A stretch of DNA of 64,000 nucleotides, taken from NCBI GenBank assembly GCA_951406725.2, contig OX597819.1, forward strand, positions 8,184,001-8,248,000, in the 5' to 3' direction. Under the pieces are notes generated by a model. It had not been told where the DNA came from, ran no database searches, and was given only the letters and a program-made list of their open reading frames with translations. The position numbers were made by a program, and so were the translations under genes. This DNA is from Octopus vulgaris. Its lineage: Eukaryota. Numbering within the stretch: position 1 is the stretch's first letter; each line of letters begins with the position of its first letter. Below are positions 3,483 through 51,170 of this stretch, piece after piece.

Positions 3483-3624
3483 TATATATATATGTGTGTG
3501 TCTGTGTGTGTATAATTCAAAACTACAAATAAAAAAGGAGAAAAGAGAGATAGAGAGAGAGAGAGGGAGAGGCGGGAACAATAAACAAGGTGCATTAGTT
3601 TGACGCATAGGTTAAATGGAAGAA

Positions 3625-3662
3625 CTTTCGACGTTTCGAGCTTACGCACTTCTACAGAAAGG
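3625..3662 (-). ncRNA. Minimal type-I hammerhead-like motif (A6U core variant) in a short non-coding repeat (about 3512-3790)
   Basis: Minus strand reads ccttt-CTGTAGA-A-GTGC gtaa GCTC-GAAA-CG-TC-gaaag. Flanks are homologous to 47660-47745. Confidence 0.55.
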
Positions 3663-24736: not shown

Positions 24737-24927
24737 CATGCTGTATGGGATATTTCTATTGAGGCAAGAGTAGAAATTTAAATATCGGTGTGTGTCTGTT
24801 TTTTTGTAAAATTCTGTCTGTTATGACTGTGGAGTTCCGAATTTTTATGTGGATATCGAGGAATGGTAGTTCATTGCAACTGAATTGTGTCGTGAATTTC
24901 ATGGATGGGTGAAGTGTGTTCAGTATA

Positions 24928-25326
24928 TCTTTATATATAAAAGTCAAGTTGTGTGTCTGTCTCCTACGATTTAGATTCCTAACTACTCCCACATTTTGCG
25001 GTGCAGTTTAACCAAAACCGGGTATCTTATAGTCGTGATTCATATCGAGCCCTTCTGGGTATTAGCGCGCGTCTACGATGAGTCTACGATTTAAAAAAAA
25101 AAAGTTACCATAATTTCTTTCCATTGTAATGCATTTTTTCGCTATTATATAAGGGATGTAACTCTCTAAAAATGTCTACGATGAGTCAACGATTTAAAAA
25201 AAATTTACCATAATTTTTTTTCCATTTTTAATAAATTTTTTTGCTATTTTTTGGCTATAACTCTCTAAAAATGCTTATATAGTTATTTCCCTTACAAACC
25301 CGAGCAACGCCGGGCGATACTGCTTG
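24928..25326 (+). mobile_element. Non-autonomous Helitron H1 nested in the PLE RT
   Basis: TC start and CTTG variant end. Removing it restores the in-frame sequence LNIFNN|ILNTLHPSM at an A|T junction with no TSD. Confidence 0.92.
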
Positions 25327-25802
25327 TTGTTAAATATATTTAGAACTTCATTCGATTTATCCCAGAAGAGGGAGCAACCATCAAGTACGCATTTCCACTT
25401 TTTAATAATATATTTCTTGTGCTCCTGATCAAAAGTTTTTTCTACTTCCTCATAAAGTTTTTCTTCCAAGTATCCCATAACTAAGTTTGCATATGAGGGC
25501 GCAAATCGCGTACCCATAGCTGTGCCCTTTATAGGTCGATATGTTTTATTGTCGAATCTAAAGGTATTTCCTTCTAGTACTAGGCGTGTGGCAGTGGTGA
25601 TGAAGTCAGTCTCGCAGCGTTCATTTATCCGTTGTCAATGTTTCTCTACCCAGTGTTTGATTGCTTCTAGGCCTAAAGTGTGAGATATATTAGTATAGAG
25701 ATGCCACCAATCTCTCTACTCAATACATACACACACACACACACACACACAAATATATATATATATATGTGTGTGTGTATATATATATATATAAAATATA
25801 TA

Positions 25803-34744: not shown

Positions 34745-35010
34745 ATATAAATATGTATATCTAATGTAGGCTAAAATTTTTTTCGAAAAAAATTCTTTTC
34801 CCAAAAAATTTTATCAATGGCCAGCATATTAAAAAATACCTTTAAAGGTTAAATTTATAAACAATTCATAAATAAGGGAAACGAAAAAATTTCTAATGCC
34901 AGATATACCGAAAAATTGGACATATTGTCCATTAACCATTTAATTTTTTCACAGTACGCACGCTACTCGAAAAAAGGTCGACAAAAATTTTTTTAAAATT
35001 TCATTATTAC

Positions 35011-35067
35011 CATATCGGACCGATTTCAGGGTTAGCTTATAACAGCCCTCCCTTCGTCAGTGATACA
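35011..35067 (-). ncRNA. Minimal type-I hammerhead ribozyme (canonical core) in a ~380-bp insert (34760-35140) between (TA)n tracts
   Basis: Minus strand reads TGTATCA-CTGACGA-AGGG...CCCT-GAAA-TCGG-TC-CGATATG; helix I has a terminal A·C mismatch. Confidence 0.75.
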
Positions 35068-35213
35068 TGTGGCAGAAGAAATAAATGAATTACTTACTCA
35101 TACCCATGGAAGAAGCAAGCACTAAGTCATGAGCACAATTAAGTATATATATATGTATATGTGTATATATATGTATATACACACACACATATATATATAT
35201 ATGTATGTTTACA

Positions 35214-35776: not shown

Positions 35777-35821
35777 TGAACTAGTACTTTCATGCATTAA
35801 ATTCTGCAATCTTCAGGTTCA
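35777..35821 (-). ncRNA. Minimal type-I hammerhead ribozyme (canonical core)
   Basis: Minus strand reads TGAAC-CTGAAGA-T-TGCA gaatttaa TGCA-T-GAAA-GTAC-TA-GTTCA, with a perfect helix I and palindromic helix III AGTACT. Confidence 0.8.
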
Positions 35822-46836: not shown

Positions 46837-47250
46837 TACTCTTTTACTCTTTTACTTGTTTCAGTCATTTTGACTGCGGCCATGCTGGAGCACCGCCTTT
46901 AGTCGAGCAAATCGACCCCGGGACTTATCCTTTGTAACCCCAGACTTATTCTATCGATCTCTTTGGCCGAACCGCTAAGTGACGGGGACGTAAACACACC
47001 AGCATCGGTTGTCAAGCAATGCTAGGGGGACAAACACAGACACATAAACATATACACACACACTTACATATATATATACATATATACGACAGGCTTCTTT
47101 CAGTTTCCATCTACCAAATCCACTCACAAGGCATTGGTCGGCCCGGGGCTATAGCAGAAGACACTTGCCCAAGATGCCACGCAGTGGGACTGAACCCGGA
47201 ACCATGTGGTTGGTTAGCAAGCTACTTACCACACAGCCACTCCTGCGCCT
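46837..47250 (-). mobile_element. SINE family B, full length
   Basis: Near-consensus copy. Confidence 0.93.
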
Positions 47251-47476: not shown

Positions 47477-47614
<138 letters not shown>

Positions 47615-47703
47615 GGAAAGTTTACGAAAATAAACAAAAGACGAAGGAAGGTGGAGTGCAAACAAACAAATGTATTAGTATAGCGCTCAGGAATAGAAAA
47701 AGT

Positions 47704-47739
47704 CTTTTACGTTTCGAGCCTACGCTCTTCGACAGAAAG
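47704..47739 (-). ncRNA. Minimal type-I hammerhead-like motif (A6U core) in insert 47591-47797
   Basis: Minus strand reads CTTT-CTGTCGA-A-GAGC gtag GCTC-GAAA-CG-TA-AAAG; helices I and II pair perfectly and helix III is the palindrome ACGT. Confidence 0.65.
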
Positions 47740-47797
47740 GGACACATAAAAAACAAGGAGAGAAACAAGGAGAGAAAAAATGCGTGTAGGAGCTAAT

Positions 47798-48481
47798 TGA
47801 TTAATCTATATTTTTGTTACTTTTCATTTGTCTTGCTCGCTTACGTTTCAGGTGTGCTAAATTTTCTGGAGAACAATTCTTAGTGGTTGAGACCATAGCG
47901 GATCTTCTTCTAGCATAAGGGTTTCCAGATAGCGGTTAAAAATTCCCTCTTATATTTATGTATGAAATACTATTTACTGAATCTCAGTTTTTTTTATATG
48001 CTAGACCACTGGTGTTAAAATTGATGTTATCAAATTAATCTTCATTTTGATTTTAATTTTAAATTAATACGTTCTCAAACCGGCGAAAACTACTGCAGTG
48101 AATTATTTATGCAGTATTTATTTCGGTAATTTAGCGCGCCTAAACGAAGACTTTTGAAAATAACCGCAAATGTAATAGGTGGAACTACACGGATTTTCGA
48201 CCTCGTGTTGATATCCGGCGTGAGGTTCTACAAATTATATCTTGCATAGAGGATCACACTGACGATCTACAGATAAGTTGTGTAAGTAAAATTACGTAAT
48301 TTGTTGATAGTGAAACAATTGTTTATGATTAATCTATATTTTTGTTACTTTTCCTTTGTCTTGCTCGCTTAAGTTTCAGGTGTGCTAAATTTTCTGGAGA
48401 ACAATTCTTAGTGGTTGAGACTATAGCGGATCTTCTTCTAGCATAAGGGTTTCCACATAGTGGTTAAAATATTCCCTCTTA
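47798..48481 (+). mobile_element. Retrozyme-like 1.3-mer of a 528-bp unit with a hammerhead at 48253-48329
   Basis: 47798-47955 is repeated at 48326-48483. The HHR reads ATCACA-CTGACGA-TCTA...TAGT-GAAA-CAATTG-TT-TATGAT. The element ends in (TA)n. Confidence 0.75.
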
Positions 48482-48485
48482 TATA

Positions 48486-48517
<32 letters not shown>

Positions 48518-48554
48518 CATTTATATATACACACACACACATATTTATATATAC

Positions 48555-48585
<31 letters not shown>

Positions 48586-48869
48586 AACACACACACACAT
48601 ATATTTATAGGAATTTTGCAAAGGTACGTGTGGCACTTACGATCAGGAGTTCCTGGTTTCGATTTCCAGACAGGGCTGTGCATTATATTCTTGAACAAAG
48701 TTCCTCGTCTCTCATTATTTTGATATATGACACGTGGCACTCTTGCACACTTGTAGCACAGGCAATGTCGACTCGACAAACATATGTGAATACTGAATAC
48801 TACGCTATTATCCTTGAGATATCCTGTCATATAGGCGTTTGGTGCGTAAGAGCACCATACACCAATCAC

Positions 48870-49262
48870 CTATATGTGAACATCCAAATACCTCAACATT
48901 GTTCTCGCACCCTAGTCGCTTCCCTCCCCCACATCTACAACACTAAGCATGCTCTCCGTGTCTTCTGTTCACTCTTGATATCAAGAGTTTATATACGGTG
49001 GCCATGGGAACAAGAATGGACCCCACCTATGCGAATCAGGTTGTTGGCTATATGATGGCCAAAATATTCTCACAATTCACTGGTCCCACTCCCTAAAAAT
49101 ACGGTCATTATATCGATGACTGTATCGGCGCGACATCAATCTCCCGCGAACAACTAGACTCCTTCCTCTCTTTTGTCCAATCCTTCCATACTGTCCTCAA
49201 ATTCACCTGCACTATCTCTAACCTTTCTGTCGAATTTCTCGACATTTTTGTCAGAATACACC
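48870..49262 (+). pseudogene. Penelope-like RT fragment
   Basis: Translation VAMGTRMDPTYANQVVG...GHYIDDCIGA...LKFTCTISNLSVEFLDI. Confidence 0.82.
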
Positions 49263-49269
49263 ATATATG

Positions 49270-50460: not shown

Positions 50461-50759
50461 TCTATATATATATATATATATAAAAAGCATTTTACAAATT
50501 GTAACACATACAATACATGGAAACTTTTTGCTATTCTGATTCTGGATAGTAAATTGTTGAAATAGTGTCTTATAAAATTATAGCTAGACGGATAAATAAA
50601 TGAGGTACTGTACGAGATATTAATATTTTTATATTTGAACTCGCATTTATAATGATTTTTATCATATTTTTAATGTTACAGCCAGAATAGTTTCAATAGC
50701 ATTATAGTCCACGGATAAATTAATAGGCCCTCATACATATACAGCTGTTGATTATATAT

Positions 50760-51170
50760 ATTTCTTTAATACCCACAAGGGGCTAAACATAGAGGGGACA
50801 AACAAGGACAGACAAAGGGAGTAAGTTGATTACATCGACCCCAGTGAAAAACTGGTACTTTATTTATCGACCCCGAAAGGATGAAAGGTAAAGTCGACCT
50901 CGGCGGAATTTGAACTCAGGACGTAGCGGCAAACGAAATACCTATTTCTTTACTACTCACAAGGGGCTAAACATAGAGGGGACAAGCAAGGACAGACAAA
51001 GGGAGTAAGTCGATTACATCGACCCTAGTGAGAAACTGGTACTTTATTTATCGACCTCGAAAGGATGAAAGGTGAAGTCGACCTCGGCGGAATTTGAACT
51101 CAGAACGTAACGACAGACGAAATACCGCAAAGCATTTCGCCCGGCGCGCTAACGTCTCTGCCAGCTCGCC
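50760..51170 (-). mobile_element. SINE family D, tandem 1.8-mer with a 15-bp TSD
   Basis: Units at 50943-51170 and 50760-50941; GCTGTTGATTATATA at 50744-50758 and 51171-51185. Confidence 0.88.

Follow-up and report, generated by a model that had tools for sequence, protein, structure and literature searches.

Non-LTR retrozymes of animals are described as non-coding, low-GC head-to-tail repeats whose highly self-paired unit carries a type I hammerhead ribozyme (parts of PMC7229834 and of bioRxiv 10.64898/2026.07.22.740005). Their circular RNAs were demonstrated in PMC7229834, and a circular intermediate and a Penelope-like element (PLE) as helper have been proposed for them. PLEs are marked by 5' truncation, partial tandems, an inverted 5' copy, a tail at one end only and microsatellite targets (parts of PMC8557442). 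A circle was proposed as PLE intermediate in a section of PMC4209133, which also reports that hammerheads with a palindromic stem III as short as the one found here must dimerise for efficient cleavage. A PLE protein studied in vitro cuts AT-rich DNA on both strands and extends each; its reverse transcriptase (RT) starts at two internal sites downstream of the hammerhead and needs RNA 3' of them. The anole element used mainly uncleaved RNA as its substrate, and no read stopped at the ribozyme site (PMC11167929). In the available parts of this literature the link between retrozymes and PLEs consists of shared ribozymes, co-occurrence and terminal-repeat phylogeny, and the mobilisation step is open.

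A 64,000-nt stretch of Octopus vulgaris DNA (the window) contains a copy of a repeat, here called family B, at 47798-48481 (the window copy). L-numbers denote the other genomic loci compared, and phases are counted from +1 = position 48324, the first nucleotide after the predicted cut. Judged by its sequence, family B appears to belong to a known kind, the non-autonomous Penelope-related hammerhead repeats or retrozymes. With the non-LTR retrozymes it shares a non-coding unit of low GC content (32-33%), the type I hammerhead and the head-to-tail repetition of a highly self-paired unit; a circular intermediate, so far predicted, and a PLE helper are proposed for it likewise. Unlike these retrozymes, family B showed no full dimers or arrays and reached at most 1.6 units (longest arm 866 nt) among the best-scored matches. 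Its unit is longer than the 170-400 nt of the invertebrate retrozymes given there as examples and lies within the 51-972 bp of bioRxiv 10.64898/2026.07.22.740005. Its copies show explicit PLE insertion signatures, which the available parts of PMC7229834 and of that preprint do not describe for non-LTR retrozymes.

Like EN+ PLEs and their pseudo-LTRs (parts of PMC8557442 and PMC4209133), family B has 5' truncation, partial tandems, inverted 5' copies, a tail at one end, microsatellite targets and a palindromic stem III, and its fixed 3' ends lie downstream of the hammerhead, as with the internal initiation of PMC11167929. Unlike EN+ PLEs it has no ORF, its stem II is about 19 bp long, and its two ends lie about 115 nt apart, against 30-40 nt. 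The pairing of one long with one short end is near obligate in family B, whereas the in vitro study found no strand difference in start site (PMC11167929). As a non-coding PLE derivative with pLTR-like partial tandems it resembles Chlamys MRC1 (parts of PMC8557442). Non-autonomous Chlamys PLEs share 3' ends with autonomous families in the same parts of that source, whereas the one autonomous-type family examined here did not have the end of family B; N-terminal-EN PLEs are there said to lack canonical hammerheads, whereas family B has one. Distinctive in family B are the dispersed sub-dimer copies, the long stem II, the wide spacing of the two start sites and the near-obligate pairing. No description of the family was found in the literature searched, and supplements of retrozyme and PLE papers may list cephalopod examples.

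Features of the family B copy and its surroundings in the window
Feature	Position	Strand	Remark
(CTAT)n/(AT)n tract	47477..47610	.	probable left part of target microsatellite; 3' end of family A arm
Family A arm, about 190 of about 207 nt	47608..47797	-	head-to-head with the family B window copy
Minimal hammerhead-like motif of family A	47704..47739	-	putative; read by eye
First pass of repeated segment	47798..47953	+	phases +3 to +158; insertion is 5'-truncated where this pass begins
Nearly one whole non-coding family B unit	47798..48323	+	fold z -5.2 against shuffles
Junction microhomology	47798..47806	+	B +3..+11 against A opposite strand, 7/9; holds an 8-nt palindrome
Private 15-nt deletion	48039..48040	+	just before the internal L site (about 48050-48065)
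Type I hammerhead	48252..48330	+	core 48259-65, GAAA 48312-15, predicted GUU cut after 48323
Stem I of hammerhead	48252-48258/48324-48330	+	C48257-A48325 mismatch
Stem II of hammerhead	48266-48311	+	long, about 19 bp; U-U at base
Second pass (tail)	48324..48481	+	ends at fixed S end, presumed RT start site
(TA)n tract	48480..48585	.	presumed primer side of target

A sequence-only reading of the locus had claimed a period of 528 nt in 1.3 units, and this was confirmed by comparison of the window copy with itself: 528 was the sole strong offset within 500-559 (score 124, next best 14), the two passes had 159 identical columns and 7 mismatches, and BLAST gave 95% over 167 nt (E 4e-72). The tandem-repeat finder had a longest period of 500, below 528. 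The CTGACGA at 48259 and the GAAA at 48312 were both present as claimed, and the first pass began at the equivalent of 48326, or +3, in agreement with the claimed start about 2 nt past the cut. The proposed monomer of about 528 nt holds for this copy and not as the period of the family, which in the other two-pass copies was 505-548, mostly 530-545 nt; the window period is 528 because of the 15-nt deletion after 48039, present at the window locus only among the copies compared. No long ORF was found in the six frames of the window copy, nor the ORF with RT plus GIY-YIG of an autonomous PLE. Rfam gave no match at gathering scores in the whole 64-kb window, and its hammerhead models gave none in 47500-48600 even at E up to 5; the unusually long stem II may be the reason for the latter result. 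Whole-window repeat searches were dominated by microsatellites.

The claimed hammerhead is real and of type I, but its stem I carries a private C-A mismatch in the window copy. This mismatch (48257/48325) occurred in 1 of 65 pattern matches, 3 of them spurious, the window copy being the sole one with CACA/TATG, and it weakens the stem I duplex from -6.1 to -2.4 kcal/mol. The other variants of stem I included CATA/TATG (32 matches), CACA/TGTG (10), CTCA/TGGG (7) and other complementary forms. The core was CUGANGA and GAAA with an NUH site and A, C, U or G at N7. The search pattern fixed the core and left stem I free, and the invariance of the core is partly built in, because the pattern demanded core-like letters. 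In 46 aligned, related sequences stem I was 96.9% paired, both partners varied in 5 of its 7 pairs, and its covariation score was reached by none of 500 shuffles; all three stems covaried as those of a type I hammerhead, the counts resting on few subfamilies. Stem III of the window hammerhead was a 2-bp palindrome. The base of stem II (10.1-11.1) was unpaired in 42 of the 46 sequences and G-C in locus L221, and the cleavage site was GUU in 50 of the 65 matches. With this site and the unpaired stem II base, the atypical ribozyme of the main subfamily may cleave poorly, and at the level of the family the ribozyme appears to be under selection. The whole unit folded far below shuffles (z -5.2 and -4.6), five of six monomers folded as circles gave z from -2.4 to -8.7, and the long-range helices had compensatory changes between subfamilies in 13 of 129 pairs. 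Two further hammerhead-like motifs were seen on the minus strand of the window, one at about 35010-35070 in a loose scan (CTGACGA, GGG/CCC stem II, GAAA) and a weaker one at 35782-35816.

Family B is dispersed in the 2.8-Gb genome. The best 40 scored of 4342 candidates gave 113 matches, and two conserved motifs had 182 and 76 exact matches, against 0 for the reversed controls. Of the first motif, 100 of the 182 matches were listed and 89 loci analyzed; of the second all 76 were listed, and the 67 loci that these added to those already included make up a sample unbiased for end type. Copies were de-duplicated by flank signature, at least one segmental duplicate (L041/L144) being counted twice, and the ends of arms were taken from BLAST, with an uncertainty of several nucleotides in AT-rich sequence. 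Two passes were seen in 18 sampled arms. No full dimer of two complete units was found among the best-scored matches for the whole unit or its middle, where a few loci reach into or past a second ribozyme; those that do are L010, L017, L022, L027 and L119. The window copy, with a single ribozyme, had been called the best single candidate for a circular ribozyme RNA. That ranking was not supported in the comparison with these five loci: because its one ribozyme has a broken stem I pair, the window copy is predicted to be a poor source of circles and an ordinary dead copy. A family at L221, 65-72% identical to family B, pairs an S with an L arm and ends at the same two sites; its period of 506 nt was copied for more than one round, and its hammerhead is canonical, with a GUC site. 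The hammerhead layout recurs in more distant B-like families, which were noted at L212:2520-3140, L221:2060-2804 and L060:72-182, with canonical G-C stem II bases and GUC sites in L221 and L060. L091 and L092, on one contig, have a common 5' end (+16) and about 240 nt of similar upstream flank, probably by duplication, or else as a co-mobilised flank.

The 3' ends of the family are fixed at two sites. Among 271 distinct arms, 242 ended at S (118 arms, about +160 to +171; the window copy at +158) or at L (124 arms, about +272 to +285); many of the 29 that ended elsewhere were evidently interrupted. A TA-like tract followed 149 of 167 S or L arms and 5 of 26 others in the first 193 arms. A TA tract as the target, as had been proposed for the window copy, agrees with these ends of the family, whereas the left neighbour of the window copy is no TA tract but family A on the minus strand. 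With the covarying hammerhead and the TA tracts adjoining the inserts, the idea of a retrozyme-like mobile RNA was upheld. In the unbiased sample, two arms joined 5' to 5', each TA-ended, were found in 33 of 67 loci. The 92 distinct head-to-head pairs comprised 67 S+L, 3 S+S, no L+L and 22 with an unclassifiable arm; the corresponding figures in the unbiased sample were 26, 1, 0 and 6, at 53 S arms and 44 L arms. Partner arms differed by 5.9% mismatch against 10.5% for shuffled partners (53 pairs) and shared 20 rare variants against 1.6 expected, and the partner was among the closest tenth in just 28 of the 53. The 5' ends were scattered and also lay past the cut site, which copies crossed up to twice. 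Extra 5' ends near phases 155-170 and 262-278 could reflect RT meeting the other start site, are explained equally by TA microhomology and were not used as evidence. In its fixed 3' ends, optional tail, truncated 5' ends, inverted 5' copies and AT-rich or microsatellite targets the family agrees with a non-autonomous PLE, and we consider Penelope-type insertion of family B highly probable, S and L being the likely internal RT start sites.

The boundary of the repeat at the ribozyme cut had been read as the footprint of a cleaved RNA, with the expectation that 5' ends pile up there. In two pattern-ascertained samples, with the expectation taken from the background rate and with the 29 arms whose 3' end lay elsewhere and all arms shorter than 45 nt excluded, only 1 of the 83 arms reaching +5 ended in +5..-2, where 5.1 were expected; the wider zone +10..-2 held the ends of 5 of 87 arms, also below background. 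The second junction was reached by 14 arms, mostly from the best-match search, of which 2 ended there, L013 at +4 and the window copy, itself picked for ending near the cut, at +3; the other 12 crossed it and ended between -5 and -118. Nor were the copies random circular permutations of a monomer, their 3' ends being fixed at two sites. The footprint idea is also inconsistent in itself, since ligation into a circle leaves no end at the cut, and RT could not read a cleaved linear RNA across that point. Instead, the boundary is the junction with family A, and the start of the window copy beside the predicted cut is likely a coincidence. It is explained by a microhomology of 7/9 with family A, established by comparing the window with the family A read-through of L086; overlaps of at least 2 nt occurred at 42 of the 92 head-to-head junctions. 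Family B joined either a family A cDNA made at the same break or a pre-existing family A copy to which it annealed. A cleaved RNA end that sets the 5' boundary of the window copy, with template jumps giving more than one unit, is therefore an improbable account; in its favour are the ends of the window copy, of L013, of L148 (0) and of the distant-family S arm of L221 (about +4 to +9), together with four further arms at +9, and the number of arms ending close to the cut is within chance.

Slightly favoured over all else is the account in which the window copy is a 5'-truncated copy of a hammerhead repeat of about 540 nt, brought into (TA)n by Penelope-type insertion from a circular monomer template. 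Rare two-ribozyme loci would be transcribed, and their RNA would cleave as a dimeric hammerhead by way of the palindromic stem III and be ligated to circles. A Penelope-type protein would cut both strands of a TA tract and prime one strand from each of the internal RNA sites S and L; synthesis of each cDNA would break off at random, in some cases beyond a full round, and the resulting two ends would be joined, frequently through microhomology. At the window locus an S-primed cDNA of 684 nt would have run across the junction a single time before joining family A sequence at a point 3 nt past the upstream cut position, leaving a copy whose one mismatched ribozyme makes it a predicted dead end. 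The claim that reverse transcription exceeded one unit stands: 12 arms cross two junctions, and the L arms of L011, L023, L060, L074, L119 and L274 are longer than one unit. A cleaved linear monomer as the main template is excluded by the read-through across the cut. In 9 of the 18 two-pass arms the passes share 13 rare variants, where 0.8 would be expected, and any difference that sets the first pass apart from the last is confined to one or two loci. The shared rare variants and the lack of a full dimer among the best-scored matches make a circular template the best guess, and the stable folding of monomers as circles agrees with it; some of these variants are subfamily traits, and gene conversion could also have homogenised passes and arms. 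A local duplication of DNA or an assembly artefact, with no RNA involved, might be suspected in a region so rich in simple repeats. It is very improbable, since copies of more than one unit, alike in layout and 3' ends, lie on many contigs and the ribozyme stems covary, and an artefact is unlikely because the passes differ at 7 of 166 sites and 18 sampled arms have two passes.

The circular template has a rival, somewhat doubtful in our view, in an uncleaved linear transcript, starting 60-120 nt upstream of the first cut site, of a locus of 1.4-1.6 units or of an unseen tandem array, inserted in the Penelope manner with no circle. After the second junction 11 ends fell in 508 nt at risk, against 3.7 expected (P 0.0015), and none lay past -118; this excess and the ceiling fit a linear template with a 5' end, and strand displacement after one round could also cause the ceiling. 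The weak-looking ribozyme core and the in vitro substrate of the anole element, uncleaved RNA (PMC11167929), agree with this rival too, and since only top-scored candidates were seen, a tandem master array could have escaped notice or have disappeared. On the other hand, the passes of a linear template should diverge and be inherited separately, yet rare variants are shared and pass-specific variants do not recur. The L arms of more than one unit would moreover need RNA beyond L, if downstream RNA is required as in the anole element; the helices that enclose both start sites depend on sequence on the 3' side of L, and the last unit of L-ended loci has none of it. To return to the circular template, the fuller proposal that long-lived circular ribozyme RNAs of about 540 nt parasitise a Penelope-type enzyme priming both strands of a single TA break from S and L, as dedicated internal sites 115 nt apart on one and the same RNA, is possible and falls a little short of an even chance. 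If true, the hundreds of copies would directly record rolling-circle reverse transcription, would give a mechanistic link between animal retrozymes and PLEs and would explain why PLE tails stand at one end only.

In family B the insertion signature of PLEs is found on a unit that is purely non-coding. The family also follows a rule that can be counted: a double insertion pairs a long end with a short one, and the two mostly stem from the same or a closely related source. With this rule the origin of the inverted and one-sided tail structures of PLEs, and circles as template, could be tested with a small RNA.

A possible helper was met in L042, where a fragment of a PLE RT is fused to a B arm on its upstream side. 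The PLE family concerned has a C-terminal endonuclease preceded by a CX4CXXC (Zn-finger-like) motif and, by the criteria given in the available part of PMC8557442, appears to be of the Neptune/Nematis type. In this one PLE family examined, no resemblance of the 3' ends to family B and no autonomous PLE with a B-like terminal repeat were found; given these unlike 3' ends it is a candidate helper and not a shown parent. Of the 12 extended loci, one, L212, has the ORF of the same PLE family directly attached to a distant B-like pair. The two chimeras, the second found through the first, are a hint of template switching and not proof. In the window, broken RT fragments of this PLE family lie at 24740-25592 (-), with 60-80% amino-acid identity; a broken PLE-type RT fragment at about 48938-49264 (+), with AMG..P.YAN and YIDD motifs, is 27% identical to it and is a separate insertion.

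The family A arm of the window copy is flanked by its own TA tract and has matches of about 90% in L041, L043, L086 and L114, the full-length start of the family being present in L086 and L114. Its putative hammerhead-like motif has a 4-bp stem I, the core CUGUCGA, a GAGC/GCUC stem II and a GUA site; a relative in L084 has a CCGACGA core and a GUC site. Cores of family A were CUGUCGA or CUGUAGA, instead of CUGANGA. A second family A stretch lies at 3580-3662 (-) of the window, and families A and B stand head-to-head in L026 too. In contigs of four presumed-RNA runs, which are uninformative on strand, ends or circles and were not used as evidence, the depth of family A was about 100-fold or more above that of family B, the latter being only partly and thinly covered. 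The window also has a 184-nt unit in 2.0 tandem copies with 93% match at 50759-51126 and an abundant SINE-like repeat at 46845-47250 (+), and sequence similar to the latter interrupts the B copy of L013 at the TA-rich S site.
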